Both the position numbers and the translations under genes were made by a program. DNA of 44,533 nucleotides from NCBI GenBank assembly GCA_016190815.1, contig JACPPT010000014.1, positions 1 through 44,533 on the forward strand, read 5' to 3'. Origin of the DNA: Chloroflexota bacterium (GTDB lineage Bacteria; Chloroflexota; Dehalococcoidia; JACPPT01). Of the stretch, positions 10,913 to 37,514 are shown piece after piece. The notes below the pieces were generated by a model that ran no database searches, had not been told where the DNA came from, and worked only from the letters and a program-made list of their open reading frames with translations. Position 1 is the stretch's first letter. Every line of letters begins with the position of its first letter.

Positions 10913-10913
10913 C

Positions 10914-19895: not shown

Positions 19896-19896
19896 G

Positions 19897-20720: not shown

Positions 20721-20731
20721 TGTTTCTTCCT

Positions 20732-21802: not shown

Positions 21803-21805
21803 ATC

Positions 21806-23239
21806 CTATACCCCAGCCAGCCTCTTGCCCAGGTAGAGGAGCCTCTCTACCCTCTCTGGGCTATCGCTTTCAGCGTAGATGCGAAGAAGAGGCTCTGTTC
21901 CTGAGAAACGTATAAGGAGCCATGTGCCGTCCTTGAGAGTGTACCGAAAACCGTCGATGGTATCCACTCTGGATACGGGTGTTTCATCAAGAGCAGGAGG
22001 CCTCTCCTTGGAAAGCCTGGCTATTATCTCTCGTCTTTGAGTTTCGTGAAACCTGACATCAACCCTGCTGTAAAAATGCGGCCCGACCTTTTCGTATAGA
22101 TACCGCACAAGCTCCGAGGGAGTCTTTTTCAGCTTGACCATGAGGTCCAGGAAATAAAGCCCTGCTAGAAGGCCGTCTCTTTCCGGTATGTGCCCTCTGA
22201 AGCCAAAGCCTCCGCTTTCCTCTCCGCCTATTAAGGCATTTTCTCGGAGCATGAGCGGTCCAACGTATTTGAATCCCACGCCAGTCTCAAAGACGGGGAC
22301 GTTATAGAGTTCACCAAGCTTGTAGAGCATCTGCGTTGTTGTGATGGTCTTGACAATAGCGCCTCGCTCGTTTCTGACATCCAGGAGATAAAGGGCGAGG
22401 AGGGCGAAGGTTTGGAGAGGAGTAACGAAAGAGCCGTTTTCGTCCACGATGCCGATTCTGTCGGCATCGCCATCTGTCGCCAGGCCAATATCGGCCCTGG
22501 TCTGTTTGACAAGAGCAGAAAGCTGGGTGAGATTCTGAGCTATGGGCTCTGGCTGTTTCATCCCTGGAAAGAGGGGATTGCGCTCACCGTGAATCTCCTC
22601 TAGTTGAGTGGCTTCACCGGAGAGGAGCTTCACAAAGTAGCCGGCTCCTGCACCATACATGGAGTCCACAGCAACCTTCAGGCCAGCTTTTCTTATGCTT
22701 GGCAGGTCGAGCAGTCCCACTACGTGATCGAGGTACGGGGGCACTGGGTCCACGTATTCGATAACGCCCTGCTTCAAACCCTGCTCTATTGGAATGGAGA
22801 TGGTCTTTCCTCTGGTGAGGGTTTTGCTTATCCGGGATTCCAGGGCCTCTATTTCTTCTGTAGATGCACTTCCTGCATACTCGGACTTGTATTTGAACCC
22901 GTTCCAGATGGCTGGGTTGTGGCTTGCGGTGATTATGACTGCGCCAGCCGTTTTCCTCTCTACTATGCTGTAGCTTACTACAGGGGTTGGAGCCGGGCCA
23001 TCGCAAAGGTAGGTTTTTATGCCGTTCCCCGCTGTTACCTCGGCTACCGTCTGGGCGAAGTTCTCGGAGGCGAATCGAGTGTCGTATCCAACAACTAACC
23101 CACGCTGCTCTGCTCCACTTTCCAACAGGTAATCGGACAAGCCTTGTGCGCATGCCTTGACATTCTCGAAGGTAAAGTCCTGAGCTATTATGCCTCGCCA
23201 GCCGTCGGTGCCAAATCTTATGGGCATTTCACCTGTCAC
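21806..23239 (-). CDS. phosphomannomutase/phosphoglucomutase
   Basis: 477 aa with phosphoserine loop TASHNPAIWNGFK and Mg site DGDADR. Confidence 0.92.
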   Translation of the reverse strand: MTGEMPIRFGTDGWRGIIAQDFTFENVKACAQGLSDYLLESGAEQRGLVVGYDTRFASENFAQTVAEVTAGNGIKTYLCDGPAPTPVVSYSIVERKTAGAVIITASHNPAIWNGFKYKSEYAGSASTEEIEALESRISKTLTRGKTISIPIEQGLKQGVIEYVDPVPPYLDHVVGLLDLPSIRKAGLKVAVDSMYGAGAGYFVKLLSGEATQLEEIHGERNPLFPGMKQPEPIAQNLTQLSALVKQTRADIGLATDGDADRIGIVDENGSFVTPLQTFALLALYLLDVRNERGAIVKTITTTQMLYKLGELYNVPVFETGVGFKYVGPLMLRENALIGGEESGGFGFRGHIPERDGLLAGLYFLDLMVKLKKTPSELVRYLYEKVGPHFYSRVDVRFHETQRREIIARLSKERPPALDETPVSRVDTIDGFRYTLKDGTWLLIRFSGTEPLLRIYAESDSPERVERLLYLGKRLAGV

Positions 23240-24352
23240 CTAAAAGGATATGGAGTCGGGCTTCAGAGTCTTTCCGGGCCAGAGTATAAAGTCATTCTTG
23301 AGCTTGTTGCCGCTGCCCACAGACGCGTTATCGCCTATAACAGGCCCTTCAATAATCCACGCTGAGTCCCCTATGGAGGCATTCTCCCCGACAACACATT
23401 TTCGAATATTGACGCCTTTCCCTATTCTGACCCCCCTCCATAAGACGGCCTCCTCCACAGAAGAGCTCTCACCCATGATGCAGCCAGGCCCCAGGACAGC
23501 GGGGCCTTTTATGCGGCTTCTAGGGCCCAAAACGCATCCCTCTCCCAGCAGTACTGGTCCACTCACTTCTGCCGTGGAGTGAATTTGACAACCCTCGCCC
23601 AGCCATACTGTCTTATGGGTTGGCTCTCCCAATATCTTAGCTATAGCTTTGCTGAGCAGCAAGTCCTTATGCACCTGAAGGTATTTCTGGGGCGTCCCTA
23701 TGTCTATCCAGTAGCCCCTTGAAGGGTATGCATAGAGCGGGGTGCCCAGCTTGAGTAAGGCGGGGAAAAGCCCGTATTCGAACATGAAATAGGTCCTGGG
23801 GGGTATGTGCTGCAATAGCTCCGGCTCCAGTAAATAGCATCCGGCGTTCACCATATTGGTGGTTACGGCCTCCCAACTGGGTTTCTCCACAAAACGGTGC
23901 ACTTCTCCTTGACTGTTGGTCTCCACTACTCCATATACGGTCGGGTTCTCGACCGGCGTCACGGCTATTGTGGCCCTGGCCTTCCTTTGTTTATGGAAGG
24001 CAAGCATAGCCGAGAGGTCCAGGTCGGTGAAAGTGTCACCATTCAGGACAAAAAAGGTATCGTTCAGATGCTCCTCCAGATTCTTAACTGCGCCGGCCGT
24101 CCCCAGGGGGGACTCCTCCATGGCATAGGTTATACTAATCCCGAAACCTCTGCCATCGCCGAAGTGCTTCTGGATTTTATCGGGCATGTAGCAGAGTGCC
24201 AAAAACAACTCCCGAACTCCATGTCCCCTGAGGTATTCGACCACATGTTCCAGGAAGGGCCTGTTCAGTATGGGCACCATAGGCTTTGGGATATTGCAGG
24301 TGAGAGGGCGCAGGCGAGTGCCCTCGCCCCCCACAAGGATGACTGCCTTCAA
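23240..24352 (-). CDS. NDP-sugar pyrophosphorylase, mannose-1-phosphate guanylyltransferase-like (N-terminal NTP-transferase plus C-terminal left-handed beta-helix)
   Basis: 370 aa, MKAVILVGGEGTRLRPLT..., with hexapeptide repeats in the C-terminal third. Flanked by PMM and PMI genes. Confidence 0.88.
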   Translation of the reverse strand: MKAVILVGGEGTRLRPLTCNIPKPMVPILNRPFLEHVVEYLRGHGVRELFLALCYMPDKIQKHFGDGRGFGISITYAMEESPLGTAGAVKNLEEHLNDTFFVLNGDTFTDLDLSAMLAFHKQRKARATIAVTPVENPTVYGVVETNSQGEVHRFVEKPSWEAVTTNMVNAGCYLLEPELLQHIPPRTYFMFEYGLFPALLKLGTPLYAYPSRGYWIDIGTPQKYLQVHKDLLLSKAIAKILGEPTHKTVWLGEGCQIHSTAEVSGPVLLGEGCVLGPRSRIKGPAVLGPGCIMGESSSVEEAVLWRGVRIGKGVNIRKCVVGENASIGDSAWIIEGPVIGDNASVGSGNKLKNDFILWPGKTLKPDSISF

Positions 24353-24378: not shown

Positions 24379-25629
24379 CTAAGACGCAGCCTCTCTTCCT
24401 CCGATGACCTTCAGGCCGGCCTCAGCTCTGAGAGCGGCTACCTTGTCGGTCTTCTCCCAGGGGAGGCTCAGGTCTTCCCGTCCAAAGTGGCCGTAGCATG
24501 CTGTTGGTTTGTATATTGGCCTCCGGAGTTGCAGGTGTTCTATTATAGCGGCTGGGCGGAGGTCAAAGTGCTTTTTTGCGAGTTCCAATATGACCTCGTC
24601 GTCAACTTTGGCGGTGCCAAAGGTTTCGATGGAGAGGGATACCGGGTGAGCGACTCCGATGGCATAAGATACCTGGATCTCCAGTCTTTCTGCGAGGCCT
24701 GCCGCCACCAGGTTCTTGGCTATGTACCTGGCTGCGTAGGCACCAGAACGGTCTACCTTCGTGGGGTCTTTGCCGGAGAAGCAACCGCCCCCGTGTCTTG
24801 CCATGCCTCCATAGGTATCCACCAGGATTTTTCGGCCTGTGAGCCCCGTGTCTGCAACAGGCCCTCCGACGACAAAACGCCCGGTGGGATTGATGTAGTA
24901 TTTTGTTCTTTTGTCCCGCAAGGCCTTTGGGACAACAGGAAGAATTATGTTCTCCATCAGATCGTTCTTAATGACCTCGTGGCTTATGCCTGGGTCGTGC
25001 TGGGCGCTGACAACCACAGTGTCCACACGCTGGGGAATGCCCCGGCAGTATTCGATGGTGACCTGCGACTTCCCGTCGGGGCGCAGATAGGGTAGGGTCC
25101 CCTCCTTCCTCACCTCGGCCATGCGCCGGCAGAGTTTGTGAGCCAGGGATATGGGAAGAGGCATCAGTTCGGGTGTTTCGTTGCATGCAAAGCCCACCAT
25201 CATGCCCTGGTCGCCAGCCCCGATCTTGTCGAAGTTGGCGTTGTTGTTGTAGGTCATCCCTTTTTCTTTTGCCTCTATAGAGTGGTCTACGCCTATGGCT
25301 ATGTCCTTGGACTGCTCCTTTAAGGAGACGGCAACCCCGCAGCTTTCGAAGTCAAACCCGTATTCGGATCGGGTGTAGCCGGCGTCGCGAATTGTGTCTC
25401 GAATAATCTTGGGTATGTCCACGTAGCAGTCGCAGGTTATCTCGCCCATTACCACAATTAGGCCCGTTGTTGTGCATGTTTCGCACGCCACCCTGGCCGC
25501 GGCATCCCTGCCTATTATGGCGTCGAGGACAGCATCGGAAATCTGGTCGCACAGCTTGTCAGGGTGTCCCTCGGTGACTGACTCCGATGTGAATAGATAG
25601 GACGGCGATGTCATAAAAGTGTGGCCCAT
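24379..25629 (-). CDS. metK: S-adenosylmethionine synthetase
   Basis: 416 aa with [17 protein letters not shown] and the [16 protein letters not shown] motif. Confidence 0.97.
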
Positions 25630-25729
25630 TGTTCCCCCTTTCCTCCTTATTCAAAAATTATTAAGGGCATTTCCCCTTCGGAAGATAAATTCGTCTCTAA
25701 TAAGTGCTTCTACTTCAGGGAAGGGGTGC

Positions 25730-26998
25730 TCATGTCCCGCTTTCCCAGCTTGATAGATATCGTTTCTGCTCCTCTGTGTGGGTGTCTATGGCTACCCCCA
25801 TGGACTTCAGCTTTAGGTGCCCGACCTCTTCGTCGATCTCTCTGGGGACAGGATAGACGCCGCGCGAGAGAGGCTTGCCTCTTTTTGCCAGGTACTCCAC
25901 GCAGAGGGCCTGGTTGGCGAAGCTCATGTCCATGACACTGGCTGGATGGCCTTCGGCGGCTGCCAGGTTTATCAGCCTTCCCTCACCCAGGAGGTTAAGC
26001 CGTTTTCCCTTGGGAAGAGTATACTCTTCTACATACGGTCGCACCTGGCGCTTGTTTACTGCCATTTCCTCCAGGGCCTTGATGTTTATCTCGACATTGA
26101 AATGCCCGCTGTTGGCAAGGATGGCGCCATCCTTCATAAGTGTGAAATGCTCTTTATCGATGCCGTTAATGCCGCCTGTAACGGTTACAAAGATATCGCC
26201 TATTTGGGAGGCATCTCTCATTGGCATGACCCTGTACCCGTCCATAACCGCTTCCAACGCCCGGACGGGGTTCACCTCTGTAACTGTGACCTGGGCGCCC
26301 ATTCCCCGGGCTCTCATTGCCACCCCGCGCCCGCACCAGCCATATCCGCAGACAACCACGTTTTTGCCGGCCCAAAGAAAGTTGGTGGCCCTGGTTATCC
26401 CGTCTATGGTGCTCTGGCCTGTCCCATACCGATTATCGAAGAGGTGCTTGGTTTCCGCCTCGTTCACTGCTATTATGGAGTAGCGAAGCTTGTTTTCCCT
26501 TGCCATGCTCTTGAGCCTGATCACGCCTGTGGTTGTCTCCTCTGTTCCACCTAAGATGTTGCCGAGCAGCTCTGTTCGCTCCTTGTGGATGCATGCGACA
26601 AGATCAGCCCCGTCGTCCAGTGTTATGTGCGGTTTTATCTCCAGCGCTGACTTTATGTGGCTGTAGTAGGTGCTGTCATCCTCGCCTTTGATGGCGTAGG
26701 TAGGGATGCTGTATTCCGAAACCAGGGCAGCAGCAACATCGTCCTGGGTGCTGAGGGGGTTGCTGGCGCAAAAGGTCAGTTGTGCCCCGCCATCTTTGAG
26801 GACAAGGGCGAGATTGGCAGTCTCGGTGGTGATATGAAGGCAGCCAGCTATTCTAATGCCCTTCAGGGGTTTCTCCTGGGTAAATCTGTCTCTAATGAGG
26901 CGCAACACTGGCATCTCCCTGGCAGCCCACTCTATGCGCAGTACGCCCTCTGCCGCCAGCGAGGGGTCTTTTACGCCTCCTCTTATTCTTTCAGACAT
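25730..26998 (-). CDS. ahcY: adenosylhomocysteinase (SAH hydrolase)
   Basis: 422 aa, full-length by-eye similarity to AhcY ([17 protein letters not shown] fold GYGWCGRG). The start overlaps the upstream stop (ATGTCTGA). Confidence 0.96.
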
Positions 26999-28586
26999 TC
27001 AACTTCCTTTTTTGGGTGATATCTTTTTTGCCGAGCTGCTCCAGGGCCCTCAGCAGAACCTCTTCCTTTGCGCCGGAGGTATCCAGAACGATGTGCGCAT
27101 CGTCGGGAACCTCTGTCAGGGGTTCGAATACTTTCTTCTGTTCTAGGTAGATTTCCCAGCGGCCGTCAGAGGGGGAGTATCCTTCTTCCAGCCTGCGCCC
27201 CAGGCGTTCCTTCACATAGTAATCGGTGGAGACGCACTCAATGATCTTCAAATCAGCGCCGGTCTCGTTTGCTAGCACTATCGTGGCCTTTCTGTCTTCC
27301 TGTCGCTGAAAGGATGCGTCCAAAATCACCGACTCCCCTTTTTCCAGAAGGCCCCTGGCTCTTCGAAACATTTCATTGTATGTATAGCGAGAGAACTCTT
27401 TTGAGTATATGCCCTCCTCAAAGCCCTCGGACCTGTGCTCCTGCGGGGTCCTTTGGGCCAGCTCCTTGCGCACGACGTCTGAGGAGATCAATTCAAGCCC
27501 CATTCTCCTTGCCAGTCCCTCTCCCAGGGTTGTCTTGCCCGTGCCGATAAGGCCCGCGGTTATGAAAAGGGTTTTCACTTCAGGGAAAGTATAAGAATAC
27601 GCCAGGTCAAAGTATTTTCTTGCCCTTTGCAGGGAGGCCTGTCTCTCGCCCTCAGGCAGGTGCGGGTCATCCAGGCTCAGGCTACCCACCTTCCCACGAA
27701 CATATGCTCGGTAGCACTTATAAAAGGGAAGGAGCTTGGGGAGGTCGAGGTCAGCACTTTTTTCTAGATAGACCTCGACAAGGTAGTTGGAGAGGTCTTT
27801 TCTCCCGTGAAACTCCAGATCCATGGCAAGGAAAGCCAGATCCGAGGCTACATCACAATACCTGAATCTCTCGTTGAACTCAATGCAGTCGAAAATATAG
27901 ATTCTGTTGGCAACACATATACTGGCGGTGTGCAGGTCTCCGTGGCAGTCCTTGATCTTTTTATCCCTTATGCGCTTGGCAAAGAGGGAGGCCTCTTCAT
28001 CCATGAAGTCCAGGGCGTATTTCCTGATGACCTCGTATTTTTCCTTCGGAATGGTTACACCTGTATACCTCTTCACCTGGTTGAAGTTCTCCTCGATGTT
28101 CAGGCCGACGGTCTTGGTCTGACCAAAGGTGGCTATTCTGTCGTTGGTCTCAGCCCTGCTGTGGAATTCGGCGATCTTCTCTGCGATTCTCCTCATCGTC
28201 TCAAAGGAGACCTCATCACGACTGAGAAGCCCATCCAGCATTTGCTCTTGGGGCAGCCTGCGCATCTTAACAGCGTATTCCACCACCTCGCCTCTGCCTT
28301 CGATGGAGAAAGCCCCTTTCTCCAGGGTTATTCTGGCAATCCCCAGGTACATATCTGGGCTGAGGCGCTGGTTCAAACGCACCTCTTCCTGACAATAGAA
28401 TCTGCGCTTCTCCAGAGTGCCAAAGTCTAGAAACCCAAAGTTCACCGGCTTCTTGACCTTGTAAACGTAGTCACCGGCAAGAAACACATAGGAAATATGC
28501 GTCTGGAGGAGGTCTACTTTATGTACCTCCTCTGGATACGCTTGTGGTTGAAGGAGCGCCTCAACTAGTGGGGGTAGCTTTGGCAT
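26991..28586 (-). CDS. two-domain protein of unknown substrate: N-terminal APH/choline-kinase-like phosphotransferase fused to a C-terminal P-loop (AAA_33/zeta-toxin-like) kinase
   Basis: 531 aa. Residues about 1-335 carry the catalytic-loop-like [10 protein letters not shown] (215-) and IFDCIEF. Residues about 340-531 carry Walker [10 protein letters not shown] (345-353) and Walker-B-like VILDASF. Confidence 0.8.
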
Positions 28587-28782
28587 CGCTTGCCTTTGCT
28601 TTTGAAGTTCTGCTTGAAGAAGAGGGCCGCGGCTTTGCGACGCGGGTTTTCTGGACTACGCGGGTTTTCTGGACGACGCGGGTTTTCTGGGGTTGGACTT
28701 GGGCCTGGGCCTTTCTCCTAGCCTCCAGCTTTTGCCTCCTGTGCCTGTGTTTCAGTGAAGCCACTCTTTTTCTTTTGTTCAT
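28561..28782 (-). CDS. hypothetical highly basic 73-aa protein with a KTRVVQ x3 repeat
   Basis: The ATG lies 6 nt after GAGGT and 8 nt after the upstream stop, and the 3' end overlaps the next gene by 26 nt. Without it there would be a 200-nt gap in an otherwise gap-free operon. No recognisable family. An antisense ORF also exists. Confidence 0.5.
   Translation of the reverse strand: MNKRKRVASLKHRHRRQKLEARRKAQAQVQPQKTRVVQKTRVVQKTRVAKPRPSSSSRTSKAKASDAKATPTS
28638..28692. repeat. 3 x 18-bp direct tandem repeat
   Basis: CGCGGGTTTTCTGGAC(T/G)A at 28641, 28659 and 28677, with the third copy diverging at its end. The in-frame 6-codon period gives KTRVVQ on the minus strand. Confidence 0.9.
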
Positions 28783-28790
28783 CTATTACC

Positions 28791-29426
28791 TCACTCGTGA
28801 GCTGGGGTTTCACGTGAAAGCTCTAGCCACCTGTGGAGCTTTCCTTTGACCTCCTCAGAGTTTGCCCTTGTGAGGAGTACCACCTCTACATCCGGGCGGC
28901 CCTTTATAGCGTCGGCGAAAGGATGAGATGCCAGCATTATGGTTCCCATCACGTTTTTCCCGCTCTCCAAAGCATCAAGGAGGGCGGAGCGAAAAGCCAC
29001 AGATGCAAGCTCCATTTTACCCACCTCGTCAACAACGACGATGTCCTTTTCATCTGTTGCGCTCCTAATAGCAGCAACGCCAACTCTGTCCAGTGACTCC
29101 ACGTCCACTCCGTATTTTCCTACACGATGTGACGAGGGGAGGCCCACGTGGGCCAACGTCCCCTTATTGCCATCGAGGGACACTATTCTGAATCCCTCCC
29201 TTACCCCGTGGCTTCGCATCTCCTCGGTAAAGAAGCCATCGCAACGTTTTCCCAAGAACTTCACGGCCTCCATAATTAGGGTGGTCTTGCCAACTCCCGG
29301 GCCTCCTGTTGTGAAGAAGGCTCGTTTGGCTATTTCTCGATGGGATAGTCCCGGGATATCCACTCCTTCATGCCCTTTTCCATGTTGTGAAGCTTCGTTC
29401 GGCCCACCACGGCGGCTATTTCGCAA
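28791..29426 (-). CDS. THEP1/NTPCR-type nucleoside-triphosphatase (NTPase_1 family)
   Basis: Walker A TTGGPGVGKTT, Walker B IVVVDEVGKME, and a core length of about 180 aa. The longest ORF starts at 29426. An in-frame GTG at 29363 would shorten the overlap with the upstream rhodanese gene from 97 nt to 34 nt. Confidence 0.82.
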   Translation of the reverse strand: MRNSRRGGPNEASQHGKGHEGVDIPGLSHREIAKRAFFTTGGPGVGKTTLIMEAVKFLGKRCDGFFTEEMRSHGVREGFRIVSLDGNKGTLAHVGLPSSHRVGKYGVDVESLDRVGVAAIRSATDEKDIVVVDEVGKMELASVAFRSALLDALESGKNVMGTIMLASHPFADAIKGRPDVEVVLLTRANSEEVKGKLHRWLELSRETPAHE

Positions 29427-29707
29427 GCGAGGGCGCTTCTTACCCCCATTTCACACACGAAGATGAGGTCATCGGTTTCGCTCAGCTCCCCGACTCTGGT
29501 GAAGAGGTCGTCCACCGGGATGAGTGTGGAACCCTCTATATGGCCGGTCACATATTCATCGGGTCTGCGGACATCCACCACCTGGACTCCTCCCCGCTCA
29601 ATCATCTTCTTGGCAACATCAACCTCTATCCTCTTGAAAGGCTCACCTGGCTCCTGCCTTACGCCCTTTTCTTGAGTCATATCCTTTTCGAACCTCTTGG
29701 TCGTCAT
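29330..29707 (-). CDS. single-domain rhodanese-like sulfurtransferase
   Basis: 125 aa with VQVVDVRRPDEYVTGHIEGS and active-site loop CEMGVRS. Confidence 0.88.
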   Translation of the reverse strand: MTTKRFEKDMTQEKGVRQEPGEPFKRIEVDVAKKMIERGGVQVVDVRRPDEYVTGHIEGSTLIPVDDLFTRVGELSETDDLIFVCEMGVRSALACEIAAVVGRTKLHNMEKGMKEWISRDYPIEK

Positions 29708-29724
29708 CTTACACTTCCCCTTAT

Positions 29725-30588
29725 TTATTTTACATATTTACCGATAAGTATGGATAAATCCTTCTTTGCCTTGGGTGGTATACGATCTCTTGCTGTGATT
29801 ATGGCGTTCTCCAGTGCCCTGGGGCACTGACAGCCCCTTTTTTCTGGCAGAGCAGCCACAACGCTCCTGATTATCTTCTTGGAGTTTGCTACGTTTTTCT
29901 GAAGGTTGGCGATAACCATCTCCACCGTTACCGATTCATGCCCTTCGTGCCAGCAGTCGTAGTCTGTAACGCAGGCCAGGGTAGCGTAGCATATCTCGGC
30001 CTCTCGGGCTAGCTTGGCCTCGGGCAGGGCGGTCATTCCAATCACGTTTGCTCCCCAGGAGCGGTAGAGGTGGGATTCGGCTTTAGTTGAGAAAAGGGGG
30101 CCTTCCATAACCACATAGGTCCCACCCTTGTGGACTCTTGGAGCTACAGCCTTTGCCTCATTATACAAGATGTCACTTAAGTCGGGGCAGAAAGGCTCCG
30201 CGAAAGCAGCATGAACGACAAGCCCATCACCAAAGAAGGTGTTCACCCTACTCTTGGTGCGATCTATGAGCTGGTTGGGGATGAGAAGGTCAAGGGGGCG
30301 CATTTCCTCTTTAAGGCTTCCGACAGCGCTCACGGATATTATCCTTTCAACCCCCAGGGACTTCAGGGCGAATATATTGGCTCTTGCTGGTATTTCAGTA
30401 GGGCTTGTCCGATGGCCCCTGCCGTGCCTGGGGAGGAAAGCAACCCTTTGCCCCTCCAGTGTGCCCAGAACGATGGAATCGCTGGGCTCCCCGAAAGGGG
30501 TTTTTATGTTGACCTCCTCTACGTTGGTCATTCCATCTATATCGTAAAGGCCGCTTCCCCCAATGATGCCTATCTTGGCCTCAGCCAC
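29725..30588 (-). CDS. mtnP: S-methyl-5'-thioadenosine phosphorylase
   Basis: PNP/MTAP family: IGIIGGSGLY, FLPRHGRGH, ISVSAVGSL. The in-frame GTG at 30588 lies 6 nt after AGGAGG and overlaps the mtnA stop (GTGGCTGA). The ORF track extends to 30627. Confidence 0.93.
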   Translation of the reverse strand: MAEAKIGIIGGSGLYDIDGMTNVEEVNIKTPFGEPSDSIVLGTLEGQRVAFLPRHGRGHRTSPTEIPARANIFALKSLGVERIISVSAVGSLKEEMRPLDLLIPNQLIDRTKSRVNTFFGDGLVVHAAFAEPFCPDLSDILYNEAKAVAPRVHKGGTYVVMEGPLFSTKAESHLYRSWGANVIGMTALPEAKLAREAEICYATLACVTDYDCWHEGHESVTVEMVIANLQKNVANSKKIIRSVVAALPEKRGCQCPRALENAIITARDRIPPKAKKDLSILIGKYVK

Positions 30589-31651
30589 CTTTACCCTCCT
30601 TGAAGATCTTGCTGAGCCCTTTCCCAAGGGGTGCTCTTATTACCCCTTTTTCAGTTACTATTGCGGACACGTACTTGTTGGGCGTTATATCGAAGGCGGG
30701 GTTCCTCACCTCTACCCCCTCCGGAGCAAGAAGGACCCTTCCAATATGGGTGACCTCCTCTGGCGGTCGCTCCTCAATGGGGATGCCTTCCCCTGAGGGT
30801 ATGGATAGGTCGATGGTGCTGGTGGGTGCTGCCACGTAGAATGGAACCCTGTTCTCCCTGGCCAGCACAGCCAGTGTATAGGTGCCAATCTTGTTGGCCA
30901 CGTCTCCGTTGGCCGCAATCCTGTCGGCTCCCACTATGACGCAGTTGATGCACCCTCTGGAGAGGAAATGCCCCGCCATGGAGTCAGTGATTAGCGTTAC
31001 AGGTATGCCCTCCTTTAGAAGCTCCCAGGCTGTCAGGCGAGCGCCTTGAAGAAAAGGCCTCGTCTCCGTGGCGAAAACCTTGAGTTTCTTGCCGCTTTCC
31101 CATGCTGCCCGGACTATGCCCAAGGCGGTGCCGTAGCCGGCTGTGGCCAGAGCGCCTGTGTTGCAGTGGGTGAGGACCGTTCCGCCATCCTGAACAAGTT
31201 GGGCACCAAGGCGTGCCAAGCTCCTGTTGGCCTCCTCGTCCTCTGCCTCTATTTTCTTAGCCTCGGCAACAAGGGCCAACCTGATCTTTGATACGTCTTT
31301 TGTGTCCTCCACCACCTTTCGCATCCTCTCTACAGCCCACTTTATGTTGACAGCCGTTGGGCGAGCATAGACGATGGTTTGGTACACCTTCTTCATCTCC
31401 ATCAGGAGTCCCTCACGGCTACCATTTTCAATGGCTTTTGCCCCGAGAGCGACTGCATAGGCGGCAGCGACCCCTAATACAGGAGCACCTCGAATGCGCA
31501 TCTCCTTAATGGCTGAGACAAGCTCCCGGTAGTCGGAGAGTTCCAGGTAGACCAACTCCCCAGGCAGCTTCGTCTGGTCAATGAGTCTCACCCTGTCGTT
31601 TACCCACTCTATAGCTTTCAAGTTGTGTATTCTCTCGATAGGTTTCAACAT
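30581..31651 (-). CDS. mtnA: methylthioribose-1-phosphate isomerase (eIF-2B alpha/beta/delta-like family)
   Basis: 356 aa with RLIDQTKLP, IRGAPVLGVAAAY and VIVGADRIAANGDVANKIGTY. Confidence 0.93.
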   Translation of the reverse strand: MLKPIERIHNLKAIEWVNDRVRLIDQTKLPGELVYLELSDYRELVSAIKEMRIRGAPVLGVAAAYAVALGAKAIENGSREGLLMEMKKVYQTIVYARPTAVNIKWAVERMRKVVEDTKDVSKIRLALVAEAKKIEAEDEEANRSLARLGAQLVQDGGTVLTHCNTGALATAGYGTALGIVRAAWESGKKLKVFATETRPFLQGARLTAWELLKEGIPVTLITDSMAGHFLSRGCINCVIVGADRIAANGDVANKIGTYTLAVLARENRVPFYVAAPTSTIDLSIPSGEGIPIEERPPEEVTHIGRVLLAPEGVEVRNPAFDITPNKYVSAIVTEKGVIRAPLGKGLSKIFKEGKGG

Positions 31652-31679
31652 ATTCCTTGACTATAAGTGTCTAGAGAAC

Positions 31680-31703
31680 AAAAAACTTCTCTTTCAAGAG
31701 AAG
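31680..31703 (-). terminator. intrinsic terminator forming the riboswitch expression platform
   Basis: Minus strand reads CTTCTCTT-GAA-AGAGAAG followed by TTTTTT. It lies between the aptamer and the mtnA start. Confidence 0.8.
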
Positions 31704-31714
31704 TCCGGCACAAA

Positions 31715-31845
31715 GCTTTTCTCTCATCTGCCCCCAAAATTTGGGGTCGGACTTGGCACCGTGTCCCGTAAGACCTAAGTCATCTGGGACCGGTTGCTGG
31801 GCTTCACTGGGCCAGTCCCTCCACCACTCTTGATAAGAGCGCTGA
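31715..31845 (-). promoter_or_regulatory. SAM-I (S-box) riboswitch aptamer
   Basis: Minus strand reads CTCTTATCAAGAGTGGTGGAGGGACTGGCCCAGTGAAGCCCAGCAACC...GGTGCCAAGTCCGAC...AGATGAGAG. P1 halves are CUCUUAUC/GAUGAGAG. By eye this matches the conserved S-box core almost position for position. Confidence 0.9.
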
Positions 31846-31865: not shown

Positions 31866-31894
31866 ATACTACCCCAGCTTTGAGACATTGTCAA
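31866..31894 (-). promoter_or_regulatory. candidate sigma70-type promoter driving the riboswitch and mtnA operon
   Basis: Minus strand reads TTGACA (31894-31889), a 17-nt spacer, then TAGTAT (31871-31866). It lies about 20 nt upstream of riboswitch P1. Confidence 0.6.
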
Positions 31895-32025
31895 GATTCA
31901 GAGAGAAACCCGAAATCAGCGATTCAGCTTTACCCAGCTTCACCCGTATGATGCTGGTTGGGTTCATGCTCAGCGGGTTTCCCCTATGATTCACCCCTGG
32001 AGTGAACTGATACCTCATCCCCTGC

Positions 32026-32049
32026 CCCCTTCTCCTGCTGGAGAAGGGG
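32026..32049 (-). terminator. GC-rich stem-loop about 50 nt downstream of ade (possible terminator, no U-tract)
   Basis: CCCCTTCTCC / GGAGAAGGGG, a perfect 10-bp stem with a 4-nt loop. No T-run follows on either strand. Confidence 0.35.
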
Positions 32050-32099: not shown

Positions 32100-33809
32100 T
32101 CAATCGCTAGTTTTAGGGAGAAATGCGCCTTTAACTACATCCACAAGCCCCTTATCTGTAAGCCTGAGCTCTGGAATGACAGGCAAGGCCAGAAAGGACA
32201 GGATTGTGAATGGAGAAGGGACTCGTACCCCCAGCTCTACCGCCGCTCTCTCCAGATCGCGTAAGTTTGCAGCTACGTTCTCCAGAGGTTCCTGAGACAG
32301 AAGGCCTGCCATAGGCAGGGCAAGGGCTTTCAGAGTCTTGCCGTTTGCTACCACCAATCCCCCGCCAAGCCGTTCCACCTCTTTGATGGCTATGTATGTA
32401 TCTCTGTCATTGGTTCCCACCGCCACAATATTATGGGAATCGTGGGCTACAGAGGAGGCGAGTGCCCCTTTCTTGAGTCCAAAGCCTTTCACAAGGCCCA
32501 GGCCTATGTTGCCTGTGGCCTTGTGCCTTTCCACTACCACAAGCTTTAGGATGTCTCTCTCGGGGTCTGGCAAAACAAGGCTGTTGTCCCTTTTGGGTCT
32601 CTCTTGTCTGAACTTGGTTATTATCTGATGGGGGACAAGTTCAATGACCGGGAGCGTAGTGTTGGAAGACGCTAGTGCCAGAGCCTCGATGCCGAAGGGC
32701 TTTACCCTCATGGTGCGGGTCATCTCCCCGCTGGCGGGAGAGGAAGGGGGAAACAGGGGTTTCCCTTCTCTAGCCACAAGGCGGCCTCGGTAGAAAACCA
32801 TCTCCGTTTGGAATCTGGAGATGTCACCCAGCACTATGAGGTTCGCAAAATAGCCCGGCGCCACCGCTCCCAGGTACGGTAGGCGGAAATATTCAGCAGG
32901 ATTTATGGTGGCCATCTGGATGGCTCTTAGGGGAGGCAACCCCAGTTTTATGGCCTTTCTGACCACGGCGTCGATGTCTCCATCGGAGAGGAGGTCAACA
33001 CAGCTTCGGTCGTCCACCACCAGGATGCAGCGTCTGTAGGTGTTATCGTTCACCAGGGGGAGGAGGGTCTCCAGGTTTTTCTCAGAGGAGCCCTCTCGTA
33101 TCATCAGGTGCATACCGCGTCGGAGCTTTTCCCTTCCCTCTTCGAGAGCGGTGGTTTCGTGGCAGGAGCCGATTCCTGCGGAAAGGTAGGCATTTAAGCT
33201 CTTCCCGCCAAGGCCTGGGGCATGGCCATCTCTGAGTCTTCCTCCGGCCATGGTGATCTTCTGGAGGACTCCCTTGTCCCCGGCGAGGAGCCCTGGAAAG
33301 TTCATCATCTCCCCCAGTCCTATAGTGTTCTTCCAGCGCAGAGCCTTGCGTATGTCTTCTGGAGTAACCTCAGCGCCGGCAGTCTCCAGGGAAGTGGCTG
33401 GAACACAGGGTGGCACCATCAGGAAGAAGTCAATGGGAAGCCTTCTGGCCCAGTCTAGCATTTGCTTCAGTCCTCTAAGCCCGCACACATTGGCTATCTC
33501 ATGAAAGTCCGTGACCACCGAGGTAGTGCCTCTGGGAACAAGAGCAAGGGCGTACTGGTCTATGTTGAGCATAGAGCTTTCCGGGTGTGTGTGTCCGTTT
33601 ATCAGGCCCGGTGCCAGGTATTTTTCCCCAAGGTCGATGGTCTCTTTCCCATCACGATAGTCTCCAATTCCTGCGATGCGGCCGCGGTATATGGCGACAT
33701 TCCCTTTCTCTATCTCCGCTGTAAAGGTGTTTATTATTTGGGCGTTGGCGAGAATGAGATCAGCGGGCATCTCGCCCGTGGCAACTTTTATCAGGTTCTG
33801 AAGGTTCAC
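32100..33809 (-). CDS. ade: adenine deaminase
   Basis: 569 aa, amidohydrolase metal motif GLINGHTHPESSM, and the length and layout of the Ade family. The GTG start overlaps the hpt stop (GTGA). Confidence 0.9.
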   Translation of the reverse strand: MNLQNLIKVATGEMPADLILANAQIINTFTAEIEKGNVAIYRGRIAGIGDYRDGKETIDLGEKYLAPGLINGHTHPESSMLNIDQYALALVPRGTTSVVTDFHEIANVCGLRGLKQMLDWARRLPIDFFLMVPPCVPATSLETAGAEVTPEDIRKALRWKNTIGLGEMMNFPGLLAGDKGVLQKITMAGGRLRDGHAPGLGGKSLNAYLSAGIGSCHETTALEEGREKLRRGMHLMIREGSSEKNLETLLPLVNDNTYRRCILVVDDRSCVDLLSDGDIDAVVRKAIKLGLPPLRAIQMATINPAEYFRLPYLGAVAPGYFANLIVLGDISRFQTEMVFYRGRLVAREGKPLFPPSSPASGEMTRTMRVKPFGIEALALASSNTTLPVIELVPHQIITKFRQERPKRDNSLVLPDPERDILKLVVVERHKATGNIGLGLVKGFGLKKGALASSVAHDSHNIVAVGTNDRDTYIAIKEVERLGGGLVVANGKTLKALALPMAGLLSQEPLENVAANLRDLERAAVELGVRVPSPFTILSFLALPVIPELRLTDKGLVDVVKGAFLPKTSD

Positions 33810-34345
33810 AATTTCACCCCTTCAACGATGCGTATGTCAGGTAAATGGCGGTATTTCTCATCCCAGTCTGTACCATACCCCACGATGAACTTATCAGGTA
33901 CAGTGAATCCCAGGTAGTCAATGTGAACCTCTACCCTTCGACGGGAGGGCTTGTCTAGAAGGGTGCATAGCTTGAGAGAGGATGGCCTTTTGCGAGCCAG
34001 ATGGCTCAGCAGAAAGGACGTGGTGAGGCCAGTATCCACGATATCTTCCACCACTAGAACGTCCCTGCCTCGGATTGGCGTATGTAGCCTGTGGGTTATC
34101 TTTATCCTTCCCGAGGTTTGGGTGCCTGCTCCATAGCTTGAAAGGCCAACGAAATCTATCTCAACCGGCATATCCAAGGCTCTTGCTAGGTCAGCGAGGA
34201 AGATGAAGGACCCTTTGAGAACACCTAAGAGAATTAGATTATGCCCCCCGTAGTCTCGCCTTATCTCCCGGGCGAGGCTTTCCACAGTCCTCTTTATCAG
34301 CTCGCGGGTGTATAAGATCCTTAGCTTCTCCAAGAGGTACTCCAT
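33806..34345 (-). CDS. hpt: hypoxanthine(-guanine) phosphoribosyltransferase
   Basis: 179 aa with PRPP loop VLVVEDIVDTGLT and typical 6-oxopurine PRTase layout. Confidence 0.93.
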   Translation of the reverse strand: MEYLLEKLRILYTRELIKRTVESLAREIRRDYGGHNLILLGVLKGSFIFLADLARALDMPVEIDFVGLSSYGAGTQTSGRIKITHRLHTPIRGRDVLVVEDIVDTGLTTSFLLSHLARKRPSSLKLCTLLDKPSRRRVEVHIDYLGFTVPDKFIVGYGTDWDEKYRHLPDIRIVEGVKL

Positions 34346-34543: not shown

Positions 34544-35290
34544 CTAAATGGGTAAACTATTCAGCACCTCCAGCAGTTCGGAAAGGTTTTTTATCCTGGC
34601 GTCAGGCTCCACAGGGATCTCCCGCTCAGTGGGGGTCTCTAAGAGTATAGCCTTCATGCCAGCCCTCTTAGCACCTGCTACATCGATTGTGGGGTGGTCT
34701 CCTACGTGCACAGACTCCTCTGGGGTGGCCCCCAGTTGCCTCAGGGTCTCTAGGAATATCCCCAAAGCTGGCTTGCAGAGCCCGACCTCGTTGGAGAAGG
34801 TCATAACGCTGAGATAGCGGGCTGTGCCTTGCTGCTCGAGGAGCCTTCGGGCCGCAGAGCCGGGAGTAGCCCCTGTGTTGCAGATAAGCCCCAGCTTGTA
34901 TCCCCGTTCTTTAAGGAGGCTGAGAGTTTCGGGCGCCCCATCTGTTACATAGGGAGGCAGTGCAAATATAACATTGATGTAAGCAGACGTTATCTTCTCC
35001 AAGGTCTGCGGGCTGAGCCTGGGCAAAAGGCCGTCGTCGATGAGATTGAGGAGGTTTTCCAACTGCTCCCTGATGGTTATGTCGTATTCTTTCGACTGGA
35101 TCTCCCACAGGATTTGGTAGGCCTCGGCATAGCCTCTCTGCACCCTTTCAATGGGAATGCCAAAGCCCTCCTCCTTGAGGGCCTTCCATACGCCATCAAT
35201 GCGTAGAGCGACCCTTTGCTCTGCGCGCTCCCTGGGGTCCGTTACCAGGGTCTGCCATAGATCGAAGGTCACTGTGGTTATCCTGTCCAT
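34544..35290 (-). CDS. HAD-superfamily hydrolase (subfamily IA-like)
   Basis: 248 aa with motif I TFDLWQTLV, motif II ICNTGA-like, and motif IV VHVGDHPTIDVAGAKRAGM. Confidence 0.8.
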   Translation of the reverse strand: MDRITTVTFDLWQTLVTDPRERAEQRVALRIDGVWKALKEEGFGIPIERVQRGYAEAYQILWEIQSKEYDITIREQLENLLNLIDDGLLPRLSPQTLEKITSAYINVIFALPPYVTDGAPETLSLLKERGYKLGLICNTGATPGSAARRLLEQQGTARYLSVMTFSNEVGLCKPALGIFLETLRQLGATPEESVHVGDHPTIDVAGAKRAGMKAILLETPTEREIPVEPDARIKNLSELLEVLNSLPI

Positions 35291-35451: not shown

Positions 35452-36519
35452 ATGCAAGCTCTAGCTGTAACACCTAAAAAGAGGAATAGCTTCAGGATTG
35501 CGGATGTGAAGACGCCCTCCCCCGAGGCCGACGAGGTTCTGGTGAAAACTGTGAGGGTGGGTATCTGTGGCACCGATTTGGAGATTGTGCAGGGATACTA
35601 CGGTGAGTCACCGGAGGGTGCGGACTATCTTATTTTAGGGCATGAGTCTTTGGGGCACATCGAGGCTGTGGGACGGGATGCAAGAGGGTTCACTCCAGGC
35701 GATTATGTGGTTGCCACAGTGAGGCGTCCCGACTCCTGTATCAATTGTCAAAGGGGAGAACCAGACATGTGCCTGACAGGTGAGTACAAGGAACGGGGCA
35801 TAAAAGGCCTTCATGGTTTTATGTCTGAATACTTTGTGGAGAAGCCTCAATATCTGGTGAAGGTGACTGCTGACATCCAGGGCGTGGCTGTTTTGATGGA
35901 ACCTTTGAGCATTGTGGAGAAGGTCCTCCGTCAGGCCTTCAAGATTCAGGAGCGATTGGTCTGGGAGCCAAAGAATGCCCTGGTGCTGGGAGCAGGGCCT
36001 ATTGGGCTTCTCGCCACAGCCCTCCTGTGCCTCAAGGGTCTGCGAACCTTCACCCTGGCTACAGGTCCTAGGGGGAACTATAAGGCACAACTTGCCGAGG
36101 TCATGGGCGCGACCTATGTAGACGTTAATGAGAACCCCATCCAGCAGATACCCCGAAAGATTGGCAATATCGATATAATATTCGAGGCCACGGGGAGCAG
36201 CTTCGTTGCTTTTCAGGCTATGGGCATTCTCGGCAACAATGGTATCATATGCCTTACAAGCGTATCGTCTGGAGAAAAACATTTGGAGGTACCATCAGAT
36301 GCTCTCAACCTTTCGATGGTTCTGGGCAACAAGGTAAGCTTTGGGAGCGTCAACGCCAGCAAGATAGACTGGGAGCGTGGAATAGAACACATGAAGGAAA
36401 TGGAGAAAAGGTGGCCTGGTCTCCTTGCAAAGATGATAACTCGCAGGTTCCCCCTGGGGGATTTTGCCCAGGCACTGGGGCGAAGGCGCGATGATATAAA
36501 GGTGGTCATTGAGCTTTAA
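35452..36519 (+). CDS. zinc-dependent MDR dehydrogenase, archaeal-type glucose/aldose 1-dehydrogenase-like
   Basis: 355 aa with GICGTDLEIV, LGHESLG, RRPDSCINC, GLHGF, EPLS and LGAGPIG. From memory, this pattern matches Thermoplasma/Sulfolobus-type GDH. Confidence 0.8.
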   Translation: MQALAVTPKKRNSFRIADVKTPSPEADEVLVKTVRVGICGTDLEIVQGYYGESPEGADYLILGHESLGHIEAVGRDARGFTPGDYVVATVRRPDSCINCQRGEPDMCLTGEYKERGIKGLHGFMSEYFVEKPQYLVKVTADIQGVAVLMEPLSIVEKVLRQAFKIQERLVWEPKNALVLGAGPIGLLATALLCLKGLRTFTLATGPRGNYKAQLAEVMGATYVDVNENPIQQIPRKIGNIDIIFEATGSSFVAFQAMGILGNNGIICLTSVSSGEKHLEVPSDALNLSMVLGNKVSFGSVNASKIDWERGIEHMKEMEKRWPGLLAKMITRRFPLGDFAQALGRRRDDIKVVIEL

Positions 36520-36560
36520 GCTGGTATCTTATATCGGTCAATTTATGAAAGGAGGGTCTA

Positions 36561-37514
36561 ATGGCAATTTTTCTCAGGGAGCAGGATGTTGAGAAGGTTC
36601 TGACAATGGAGGAGTGCTTGAAAGCTGTTGAGGAGGCTCTAAAACAGCAGGCCGAGGGCACCGCTGTCAACGTCCCCAGATGTCGTGCCCGCTTTCCCCT
36701 GGGTGCCTTGAACATGATGATAGCTGCGGTTCCTCAAATGGGAGCCATGGGCTATAAATCCGTCGCTGTGAGCGATACCCGGAGAAGGTTTCTGGTGGTG
36801 GTTCACAGCACGCAAACCGGGGAGATTCTCGCAATTATGGAGGCTGACCGCCTGACCCAGCTCAGAACGGGAGCGGCAACAGGCGTCGGAGCCAAATACA
36901 TGGCCCGGCAAAATGCTCGAACCGTGGGCATTATAGGTTCCGGCTATCAGGCCAAAACCCAGCTAGAGGCTGTCTGTGCTGTAAGGGGGATCAAGGCTGT
37001 CAAGGCCTATGACACAGTCCCTGAAAAAAGAAAGGCTTATTCCCGCGAAATGAGCAAGGCTTTGGGTATTGAGGTGCTTCCCGTTGATAGCGCGGAAGAG
37101 GCGGTCAAGGGCTCCGACATTGTGGTTACCTCCACCACCTCACGGGAGCCTGTGCTGAAAGGTGAATGGCTGGAGGAGGGCACCCACGTTACAGGGATGG
37201 GCACCGCGGACCTGGCCCGTCGGGAGATAGACGAGGCGACTGTTCGGCGCAGCAGCATAGTTGTGGTGGAGCACAAGGACCAGGCCAAGATAGAGAGCGG
37301 GGATCTTCTACATCCCATCGAGCGCGGCATAATACACTGGGGGCAGGTCTATGAGCTGGCCGATGTGGTTTCAGGGAGGGTGAAGGCTCGCCAGAAGGCG
37401 AGCGACATAACGCTGTTTAAGTGTCATGGTATGGCTACATGGGACGTTGCTGTTGGCATTAGGACATACGAGCTTGCCAAGGCCAAGGGGCTGGGTGCTC
37501 AACTTCCATTCTGA
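36561..37514 (+). CDS. ornithine cyclodeaminase/mu-crystallin family protein
   Basis: 317 aa with Rossmann motif IIGSGYQAKTQLEAV and typical family length and N-terminus. Confidence 0.85.
   Translation: MAIFLREQDVEKVLTMEECLKAVEEALKQQAEGTAVNVPRCRARFPLGALNMMIAAVPQMGAMGYKSVAVSDTRRRFLVVVHSTQTGEILAIMEADRLTQLRTGAATGVGAKYMARQNARTVGIIGSGYQAKTQLEAVCAVRGIKAVKAYDTVPEKRKAYSREMSKALGIEVLPVDSAEEAVKGSDIVVTSTTSREPVLKGEWLEEGTHVTGMGTADLARREIDEATVRRSSIVVVEHKDQAKIESGDLLHPIERGIIHWGQVYELADVVSGRVKARQKASDITLFKCHGMATWDVAVGIRTYELAKAKGLGAQLPF

Follow-up and report, generated by a model that had tools for sequence, protein, structure and literature searches.

Why should an operon led by an S-adenosylmethionine (SAM) riboswitch carry only two enzymes of methionine salvage and, directly behind them, four genes without a known role in SAM or methionine recycling? 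The question is raised by a Chloroflexota bacterium of the class Dehalococcoidia (assembly GCA_016190815.1), whose contig JACPPT010000014.1, at its full length of 44,533 nucleotides (nt), is the window analyzed here. On its minus strand, mtnA and mtnP are followed by genes for a rhodanese, a THEP1-type nucleoside triphosphatase (NTPase), a small basic protein and a double kinase with an APH-like and a P-loop domain, and then by ahcY and metK. An earlier note on this DNA had suggested that the four genes form an undescribed branch for handling 5-methylthioribulose-1-phosphate (MTRu-1-P), its sulfur or 5-deoxyribose. We arrive at a different reading, to which we give about an even chance: the operon, repressed by SAM, serves the SAM cycle and removes its by-products, with the four extra genes attached to it as three independent additions. 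The general point of the note stands, in that the four genes are real, conserved, SAM-linked and tightly packed behind the riboswitch, and lack a known role; as a single unit placed where MTRu-1-P would be processed they do not hold together, since they assort independently across about 165 related loci.

In the mechanism that we propose, abundant SAM would bind the S-box aptamer, the terminator at 31706-31683 would form and transcription would halt before mtnA, whereas scarcity of SAM would allow read-through and expression of the operon. MtnP would split 5′-methylthioadenosine (MTA), and probably also 5′-deoxyadenosine, into adenine and a pentose-1-phosphate, which MtnA would convert to the ketose-1-phosphate; AhcY would hydrolyze S-adenosylhomocysteine (SAH) to adenosine and homocysteine, MetK would make SAM from methionine and ATP, and the adenine deaminase and hypoxanthine phosphoribosyltransferase (Hpt) encoded upstream would carry the released adenine to inosine monophosphate (IMP). 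The double kinase would most likely phosphorylate the nucleoside or pentose freed by AhcY or MtnP. SAH hydrolase runs forward when products such as adenosine are removed, and adenosine is the leading candidate because its removal would pull the unfavorable hydrolysis of SAH forward and return adenylate for MetK. The rhodanese would transfer sulfur for homocysteine or methionine supply, in a slot that elsewhere holds the homocysteine-methylating core-MetE, and the THEP1 NTPase with the basic protein, whose tail is AT-hook/H1-like, would be an accessory pair of the APH/AAA_33 kinase.

A SAM-I riboswitch and the genes behind it

The aptamer (31721..31839, minus strand) matches the covariance model of the SAM-I (S-box) riboswitch in Rfam, RF00162, over its full length (model positions 1-108 of 108) at 80.5 bits versus a gathering score of 44.4 (E 1.6e-17), which confirms what the earlier note had said of an operon led by a riboswitch. 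A putative sigma-70-like promoter, TTGACA-17-TAGTAT (31866..31894, minus strand), lies 27 nt upstream of the aptamer and is a pattern match alone, with 10/12 positions in a consensus scan. Between the aptamer and mtnA, a terminator scan locates the intrinsic terminator of the expression platform (31677..31706, minus strand), a 10-bp stem GGACUUCUCU/AGAGAAGUUU with a U-tract; its hairpin (31706..31683) is kept in both the minimum-free-energy and the centroid folds, and the element ends 26 nt before the mtnA ATG. Judged from these features, this is a genuine S-box OFF switch, predicted to be SAM-dependent, ahead of the operon. The check for internal signals that the note had proposed yielded no convincing promoter or terminator within the operon, just weak 9/12 promoter matches and 5-bp hairpins without a U-tract, at or below the level of shuffled sequences. 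A second riboswitch or SAH element was sought in the ahcY-metK spacer, and no RNA family matched at E<=1 in the searched region of 25560-25800.

The outer genes, all on the minus strand, pass their curated models: mtnA (S-methyl-5-thioribose-1-phosphate isomerase; 30581..31651) scores 449.8 against the TIGR00512 equivalog (cut-off 279), mtnP (5′-methylthioadenosine phosphorylase; 29725..30588), which starts at GTG, 333.1 against TIGR01694 (274.85), ahcY (SAH hydrolase; 25730..26998) 632.1 against TIGR00936 (497.6) and metK (SAM synthetase; 24379..25629) 583.6 against TIGR01034 (309.4). Between mtnP and ahcY, on the same strand, lie the genes for a single-domain rhodanese (29330..29707; PF00581), a THEP1/NTPCR-family NTPase of the NTPase_1 type (28791..29363; PF03266; start at GTG 29363 or TTG 29426), a 73-aa basic open reading frame (ORF; 28561..28782) without a family match and a 531-aa APH-like plus AAA_33 double kinase (26991..28586), recognized by its AAA_33 match and its predicted fold. 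The start of mtnP overlaps the stop of mtnA by 8 nt (the GTGGCTGA junction, with AGGAGG upstream), 17 nt separate mtnP from the rhodanese gene, the rhodanese and NTPase genes overlap by 34 nt (GTG start 29363) or 97 nt (TTG start 29426), an 8-nt gap precedes the small ORF, which overlaps the kinase gene by 26 nt, and the start of ahcY overlaps the kinase stop by 8 nt (the ATGTCTGA junction). These six junctions, read directly from the sequence, are as the earlier note described them; of the eight ORFs that it counted, seven lie inside 25730-31651 and the eighth is metK, which falls outside that range after a spacer of 100 nt past ahcY.

Independent gene calling on contig L086, 99.98% identical to the window, returned the same seven genes, the 73-aa ORF included, with mtnP called as 287 aa from GTG and the NTPase as 190 aa from GTG 29363. 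This contig and a second short one (L087), from runs SRR12113390 and SRR12113401, align with the window over 5.1 and 2.0 kb at an identity of 99.95-99.98%, and we therefore conclude that the same population was sampled more than once. From its gene content, the operon is predicted to join MTA phosphorolysis and isomerization with SAH hydrolysis and SAM synthesis behind one S-box.

The double kinase and the slot next to ahcY

The C-terminal domain of the kinase (approximately residues 340-490) is an AAA_33 P-loop domain (PF13671; E 4e-23, 82.7 bits versus 27) with the Walker A motif GLIGTGKTT, and the N-terminal domain (approximately residues 1-335) is APH/choline-kinase-like according to a Foldseek search with the predicted fold. 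The label of APH-like/P-loop protein in the earlier note holds for the P-loop half; the APH half is reached through homologs and the predicted fold, since the window protein itself misses the Pfam APH model (PF01636) at E<=0.01, which 23 of 25 homologs match (best E 4.2e-8). These 25 homologs, at 52-56% identity, make up the alignment on which the AlphaFold model was based (predicted local distance difference test, 86.7; predicted template-modeling (TM) score, 0.83), and the motifs H215-G216-D217 and D233-x-I-E-F-N238 are invariant across them. Foldseek relates the N-terminal domain to choline/ethanolamine kinase, maltokinase and LicA, and the C-terminal domain to 2RHM, a sugar kinase, gluconokinase, adenylate kinase and the PFK-2 kinase domain (TM-score normalized to the target 0.66-0.75 for 2RHM, 4EUN, 3T61 and 3CM0); a sequence-only search of the PDB gave P-loop matches alone, leaving the N-terminal domain without any. 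Database matches to the family number at least 8,000, all at E <= 1e-5, its members carry no annotation beyond 'aminoglycoside phosphotransferase/AAA ATPase', and our literature search found no functional paper on this type of protein.

To describe its neighborhoods, we scanned one genome per GTDB species with a kinase profile, took the 80 most similar loci (L numbers below) and compared their flanks by tblastn with the window proteins and by unbiased clustering of all flanking ORFs; the best 80 loci of each scan are related by descent, and the counts are descriptive rather than counts of independent events. AhcY is the commonest operonic neighbor (21/80 loci), encoded on the same strand at a median of 21 nt downstream of the kinase, which most often stands directly upstream of ahcY-metK, with or without mtnA/mtnP (without them in L007, L019, L023, L045 and L051). 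MetK is present at 18 of the 80 loci, the NTPase and a phosphomannomutase/phosphoglucomutase (PMM/PGM) at 15 each, MtnA and phosphoglucose isomerase (PGI) at 10 each. Members of the purine nucleoside phosphorylase (PNP) family are encoded at 31, as true MtnP in Chloroflexota and as a distant, non-operonic PNP-like gene in Syntrophales; we rejected the latter, downstream of the kinase, as a partner because two opposite-strand genes intervene. A protein of approximately 340 aa without a Pfam domain recurs at 13 loci. It has an HxC...C zinc motif and a weak match to an archaeal methionine synthase model, and because of these two features and the published cbdbA operon we assign it to the core-MetE methionine synthases of Dehalococcoides. 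In D. mccartyi CBDB1, core-MetE (cbdbA481) shares an operon with ahcY (cbdbA477) and metK (cbdbA476) (Deobald et al. 2020, PMC7005905); the kinase and the NTPase are not discussed there, and we infer that cbdbA478-480 hold their genes.

Around the kinase, the gene order is variable within a recognizable frame, in which kinase-ahcY-metK stays the same and the gene ahead of it changes. One arrangement is mtnP-coreMetE-DUF6485-NTPase-kinase with either ahcY-metK or dcd/HAD behind it (L001-L006, L068), the order core-MetE (with HxC...C), DUF6485, NTPase, kinase being found in L003-L006, L016 and L068. In L008, L010 and L088, the same core-MetE frame has a basic protein replacing DUF6485 and carries an insertion of archaemetzincin and thiolase/DUF35 genes. 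Others have kinase-ahcY-metK-PGM with unrelated upstream genes (L007, L019, L023, L024, L045, L051), the order of the window, mtnP-rhodanese-NTPase-basic-kinase-ahcY-metK-NTP-transferase-PGM (L044), or S-box-mtnA-mtnP-rhodanese-basic-kinase-ahcY-metK with the NTPase absent (L028 and L031, both complete Dehalococcoidia chromosomes). The kinase-ahcY-metK frame is typical of Dehalococcoidia. The recurrence of synteny that the earlier note had asked about is therefore found in Chloroflexota for the neighborhood, and not for the four genes as a block. An S-box was detected in seven loci (the window, L028, L031, L098, L101, L018 and L121). The inserted genes, which encode a Peptidase_M54 archaemetzincin-like protein, an archaeal-type thiolase and a DUF35/OB-fold protein, separate NTPase from kinase in L008, L010, L012, L013 and L088 (7501-9676 in the last). 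In four loci of deltaproteobacteria, the gene directly before the kinase encodes Hpt.

Viewed from ahcY, the position of the kinase is a slot that can be filled in different ways. A metagenome scan with the window AhcY gave the 80 most similar loci, at 63-74% identity, of which 59 extend 900 nt or more upstream of ahcY; metK comes first, a different gene order, in 19 of these, and the other 40 were analyzed. A kinase is encoded one or two genes upstream of ahcY in 28/40: a PfkB-family kinase in 13, the fused APH/AAA_33 kinase in four and a split or stand-alone AAA_33-type kinase in 11. Among the PfkB loci (L101 6738-7697; L121 6240-7169; L102, L111, L148, L167; L110, L112, L117, L123, L143, L168), L101 reads S-box-mtnP-rhodanese-PfkB-ahcY-metK, a single PfkB gene standing in for the NTPase-basic-double kinase genes of the window, and L121 reads S-box-mtnA-PfkB-GNAT-ahcY; the NTPase was never seen in loci of this type. 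The best NCBIfam similarity of the PfkB proteins is to nucleoside kinase in six of the ten scanned and to other sugar kinases in four, all below cut-offs, and ribose-1-phosphate kinase or ribokinase is among the next matches of the nucleoside-kinase-like ones. Beside ahcY, the double kinase thus appears to take the place that PfkB nucleoside/sugar kinases have in other loci.

The location of the slot beside ahcY and the benefit of removing an AhcY product make adenosine or a pentose the most economical substrate, and we accordingly regard adenosine, another nucleoside or a pentose as the candidate substrate of the kinase. A more specific proposal, which we advance tentatively and at well below even confidence, is that the double kinase, possibly with the THEP1 NTPase and its basic partner, is an uncharacterized, non-orthologous protein that, in the Dehalococcoidia SAM cycle, replaces an adenosine/nucleoside kinase of the PfkB type; its two fused domains could catalyze successive phosphorylations, e.g., adenosine to AMP to ADP. 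The arrangement resembles the known coupling of SAH hydrolase and adenosine kinase in that a kinase gene lies directly upstream of ahcY, a PfkB gene in the 13 related loci. It differs in that the window kinase is unrelated to PfkB adenosine kinases and belongs to a two-domain APH-like plus AAA_33 type with no characterized member. For this widespread kinase, its position beside ahcY offers a specific and cheap hypothesis, namely an adenosine or pentose kinase, and the replacement, if true, would provide the first physiological context for both the double-kinase family and THEP1/NTPCR.

In the split loci, the kinase is a separate APH-like protein plus a divergent P-loop kinase with the Walker A motif GLPGTWKT (L091 952-2417; L097 5299-7970), with further relatives in L090, L093, L095, L096, L103, L106, L135 and L068. 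A PHP phosphoesterase lies between the kinase and ahcY in 8/11 split or stand-alone loci, its best, sub-threshold similarity being to 3′,5′-nucleoside bisphosphate phosphatase, and in L097 a SAM-dependent methyltransferase takes its position. This neighbor prompted us to consider the P-loop domain as an adenosine 5′-phosphosulfate (APS) kinase, a candidate that we dropped as 0/25 homologs match APS_kinase.

Rhodanese, NTPase and basic protein

The rhodanese (PF00581; E 4.5e-17, 62.8 bits versus 22.2) has a loop, CEMGVRS, of the six-residue CX4R sulfurtransferase type with the catalytic cysteine, which is kept in L028, L044 and L101 (orthologous loops CAAGARS, CQAGQRS and CAAGVRS). Among solved structures, it is closest to YgaP and to rhodanese domains in fusions with persulfide dioxygenase or CoA-disulfide reductase; in NCBIfam, it most resembles the MoeB/MoeZ rhodanese domains, with all scores below cut-off, and the GlpE, PspE and MoeZ equivalogs do not match. 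Adjacency of mtnP and the rhodanese gene is found in eight loci (the window, L028, L031, L044, L098, L100, L101 and L127), five of which are among those with an S-box (the window, L028, L031, L098 and L101), and in L098, L100 and L127 the rhodanese gene is followed directly by ahcY, the kinase and NTPase being absent. The slot that it occupies after mtnP is the one that core-MetE occupies in other Dehalococcoidia. Our guess is that it is probably a persulfide-type sulfurtransferase for the supply of homocysteine or methionine sulfur rather than an enzyme of thioether chemistry; a sulfur-recovery step of anaerobic MTA salvage is a less likely role for the mtnP-linked rhodanese.

The NTPase is a clear homolog of both THEP1 of Aquifex (aq_1292) and human NTPCR, whose structures it matches at E 1.6e-24 (1YE8) and 1.8e-25 (2I3B), respectively, with PF03266 at E 2.3e-44 (151.7 versus 23.9), NF010248 at 164.3 versus 156, the Walker A motif GPGVGKTT and a DEVGKME motif. 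It differs from these relatives in its link to a SAM-cycle operon and in having a small basic partner, of which we found no description. A human member of the THEP1/NTPCR family is overexpressed in tumors, and the family here gains a conserved bacterial context. Across the approximately 165 related loci, the NTPase and the basic protein accompany the APH/AAA_33 kinase only. THEP1 has a RecA-like fold with a positively charged surface, for which a nucleic-acid-related role has been suggested, and showed slow NTPase activity and no kinase activity in vitro (PMC1079890). In view of this fold, surface and suggested role, the NTPase/basic pair may therefore not be metabolic, and its role is possibly nucleotide- or nucleic-acid-related. 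Outside the SAM cluster, a 60% identical NTPase_1 homolog is encoded in L089 (6455-7546), immediately behind a Macro-domain protein and close to a phosphoribosyltransferase.

The 73-aa ORF has no Pfam or NCBIfam match, and whole-database searches with it retrieve nothing usable; its relatives are detectable through synteny-restricted tblastn only. It comprises a conserved N-terminus, MNKRKRVASLKHRHRRQKLEARRK, and a low-complexity tail, and contains an in-frame tandem repeat of 18 nt x 2.9 (28638-28690). An N-terminus of the form MNKRKR[VM]AxLKHRxRxKKLxExRK heads ORFs of 122-164 aa in L088/L010, L008 and L021, where the ORF abuts the start of the NTPase gene, and further variants are present in L044 and L028 (members of the family: L088 6636-7004; L010 6839-; L008 3975-; L021 801-; L044 1995-2456; L028 ~9300-9989). 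Their tails are rich in Ala, Lys and Pro, some with AT-hook-like RGRP motifs, and the family is always found inside a SAM-cycle cluster, usually abutting the THEP1 NTPase gene. By this comparison, the ORF is a real gene and a member of an unannotated family of small basic proteins.

Competing explanations and the surroundings of the operon

Beyond the shared descent of the compared loci, several points weigh against an operon for the SAM cycle with three add-ons. Neither kinase domain matches a curated NCBIfam equivalog, and no MtnK model is among the matches at E<=0.01; the PfkB scores for the nucleoside kinase, ribose-1-phosphate kinase and ribokinase models are likewise sub-cut-off, and the sharing of a slot with PfkB suggests an analogous function and is no proof of one. 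The role of the rhodanese is guessed from its position and active-site type. Adenine deaminase and Hpt, together with a promiscuous MtnP, could dispose of adenosine without a kinase. No S-box was detected in the core-MetE-type loci searched, and SAM control of the kinase is therefore not universal. The kinase has unrelated neighbors outside Chloroflexota (Hpt-kinase-QueC in four loci; RlmN, isocitrate dehydrogenase and TPR lipoproteins elsewhere), so its role may be a general one. Finally, synteny also preserves the unrelated neighbors metK-PMM-PGI, and some of the adjacency is therefore simply inherited.

The last two points keep an alternative serious, namely that the four genes are hitch-hikers unrelated to SAM metabolism, whose synteny was inherited by descent within a long run of co-directional genes in a compact genome; we regard this as a genuine possibility, but a minority one. 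The minus-strand array runs with short spacers throughout from 35290 to 20343 and holds unrelated modules: behind metK, with spacers of 0-26 nt, follows a GDP-mannose-type module (20343-24352, minus strand) of a mannose-1-P guanylyltransferase-like protein, PMM/PGM, a bifunctional PGI/phosphomannose isomerase and a 125-aa ORF without a family. Because the packing is equally tight through these genes, it is not specific to the SAM genes and is weak evidence for a pathway. The order metK-PMM/PGM-PGI is kept in 10-15 loci without an obvious SAM link, the archaemetzincin and thiolase/DUF35 genes have been inserted between NTPase and kinase in L008, L010 and L088, and the NTPase occurs in the other context of L089, as the kinase does in other phyla. 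Against inheritance alone, however, the kinase-ahcY adjacency outlasts many rearrangements on both flanks, and the rhodanese, core-MetE and PfkB genes replace one another while the rest of the frame stays the same. Descent alone does not easily account for the 13 further loci in which the slot of the kinase holds a member of a different kinase family. The stop/start overlap at the ATGTCTGA junction suggests translational coupling of the kinase and ahcY, and the S-box places these genes under predicted SAM control in at least seven loci.

The proposal of the earlier note, that the four genes process MTRu-1-P, its sulfur or 5-deoxyribose derivatives after MtnP and MtnA, is in our view improbable, though its starting point is sound. 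With the whole contig as the window and its large ORFs as the set scanned, we found no MtnB/C/D of canonical methionine salvage, no member of the RuBisCO large-subunit family, i.e., no RuBisCO-like protein (RLP) of the MTA-isoprenoid shunt, and no class II aldolase (Ald2, PF00596) of the dihydroxyacetone phosphate (DHAP) shunt. This agrees with the absences listed in the note, and its statement that MtnP and MtnA alone represent methionine salvage in the window holds as well. Two neighbors were considered as stand-ins and rejected. The HAD hydrolase upstream (34544..35290, minus strand) is not a candidate for MtnC/MtnX as it matches generic HAD families alone, below specific cut-offs, with no enolase-phosphatase (MtnC) family at E<=1e-5. 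The only aldolase of the window, of HpcH/HpaI type (PF03328; 37597..38370, minus strand), lies 6 kb away; paired with a Zn-dependent dehydrogenase, it does not serve as a DHAP-shunt analog, being of a pyruvate-specific family and not of the Ald2 type, and the pair is not near the cluster in relatives.

Strict anaerobes are barred from the O2-dependent canonical pathway, hence some unknown route must exist. A single S-box precedes the four genes, which are flanked by mtnP and ahcY, the mtnP-rhodanese adjacency is strictly kept in the eight loci, and the kinase adjoins an mtnP/core-MetE/NTPase block without ahcY in L001, L005 and L068 and stands directly beside mtnP in L018. MtnK, the known 5-methylthioribose (MTR) kinase, is a member of the same APH superfamily. 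Yet a rhodanese alone, a rhodanese with PfkB, a kinase without mtnA/mtnP and loci lacking the NTPase all occur, and ahcY is the most frequent and closest neighbor of the kinase. To our knowledge, none of the folds concerned (rhodanese, RecA-like NTPase, disordered basic protein, small-molecule kinases) dehydrates, enolizes or cleaves the C-C bond of a ketose-1-phosphate; a rhodanese moves sulfane sulfur and cannot open a methyl thioether; an MTR kinase is unneeded where MtnP is present, and the MtnK equivalog is unmatched. Because of this independent assortment, the unsuited folds and a packing that also embraces the unrelated GDP-mannose genes, the proposed branch is not supported, and the genes that decide what becomes of MTRu-1-P probably lie elsewhere than beside mtnP/mtnA. 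The DHAP and MTA-isoprenoid shunts are compatible with anaerobes and also accept 5′-deoxyadenosine (review PMC13474568); they share the first steps, MtnP and MtnA, with the window, and differ in that their third enzyme (Ald2 or RLP) and cupin are absent from the window and the examined flanks. Many strict anaerobes, these included, carry MtnP and MtnA only, and the locus narrows the search for the MTRu-1-P route.

Still less probable is a role in de novo homocysteine supply, in which the rhodanese would provide persulfide sulfur and the kinase would activate homoserine or another precursor, and both would count as classical members of an S-box regulon for the synthesis of sulfur amino acids. 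The rhodanese does stand in the core-MetE slot, and in NCBIfam it scores best against rhodanese domains from the sulfur-carrier activators MoeB/MoeZ, although far below cut-off. A MoeZ/MetO thiocarboxylate route from O-phosphohomoserine to homocysteine is known, as are homoserine kinases of several unrelated folds (bioRxiv 10.1101/2024.10.14.618325). However, MetM, MetO and MetY genes are absent from the window and flanks, D. mccartyi has a confirmed homoserine phosphotransferase of another family, and the kinase tracks ahcY rather than the rhodanese. Last and very unlikely is a pentose-bisphosphate-like route, with MtnP as a general nucleoside phosphorylase, the kinase making ribose-1,5-bisphosphate (R15P) out of ribose-1-phosphate and 'MtnA' as R15P isomerase: the two isomerases are homologous, the PfkB proteins of the slot are weakly similar to ribose-1-phosphate kinases and the N-terminal domain of the kinase resembles anomeric-sugar kinases, e.g., maltokinase, but the window isomerase passes the MtnA equivalog and fails that of R15P isomerase (TIGR00511, 239.8 under a cut-off of 314.1), RuBisCO is absent from the window and every flank examined, and the PfkB matches are far below cut-offs.

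The operon as such is not new, since both the S-box control of methionine/SAM genes and the metK-ahcY-core-MetE cluster of Dehalococcoides are known. With the D. mccartyi CBDB1 operon, the window shares a frame of mtnP, a slot gene, (NTPase), APH/AAA_33 kinase, ahcY and metK; it lacks core-MetE and DUF6485 according to tblastn, has the rhodanese and the basic protein instead and is led by an S-box, an element not detected in the core-MetE-type loci searched. With the S-box regulon of Firmicutes, e.g., the mtnKA (ykrTS), metK and metE leaders of B. subtilis, it shares the SAM-I plus terminator OFF switch and the regulation of mtnA. It differs in having one S-box before a long mtnA-mtnP-ahcY-metK operon, in being followed by no mtnB/C/D/W/X, and in that B. 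subtilis uses MtnN/LuxS and no ahcY, whereas the window has MtnP in place of MtnN plus MtnK. We know of no S-box regulon that includes a rhodanese, a THEP1 NTPase or a double kinase, and our literature search found no paper combining a rhodanese with a SAM riboswitch, nor Dehalococcoidia with MtnA.

Upstream of the riboswitch, the array includes adenine deaminase (32100..33809, minus strand; TIGR01178 ade, 576.8 versus 472.5) and Hpt (33806..34345, minus strand; PF00156), which we infer to send the adenine released by MtnP to IMP. Just past the adenine deaminase stop lies a 10-bp GC-rich hairpin (CCCCTTCTCC AGCA GGAGAAGGGG; 32025-32048, minus strand) without a U-tract, where the transcription unit ahead of the S-box promoter may stop. 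A homolog of the HAD hydrolase (32% identity) also adjoins the cluster in L001 and L005. PGM and PGI follow metK in 10-15 related loci, unrelated modules thus being kept syntenic in the lineage. Farther upstream, a group of genes for a Zn-dependent dehydrogenase, an ornithine cyclodeaminase/mu-crystallin protein, the HpcH/HpaI class II pyruvate aldolase and an NAD-dependent epimerase (35452-39475) does not recur beside the cluster in relatives. The remaining regions of the window are ordinary: on the plus strand, a ribosomal-protein supercluster (1209-20292; EF-G, L3, L2, S3, SecY, adenylate kinase, Map, RpoA, TruA, S9) and glycogen genes (39699-44105; GlgC-like, a GH57 branching enzyme and glycogen synthase) flank the array, and the G+C content is flat across the window, at 0.52-0.56.

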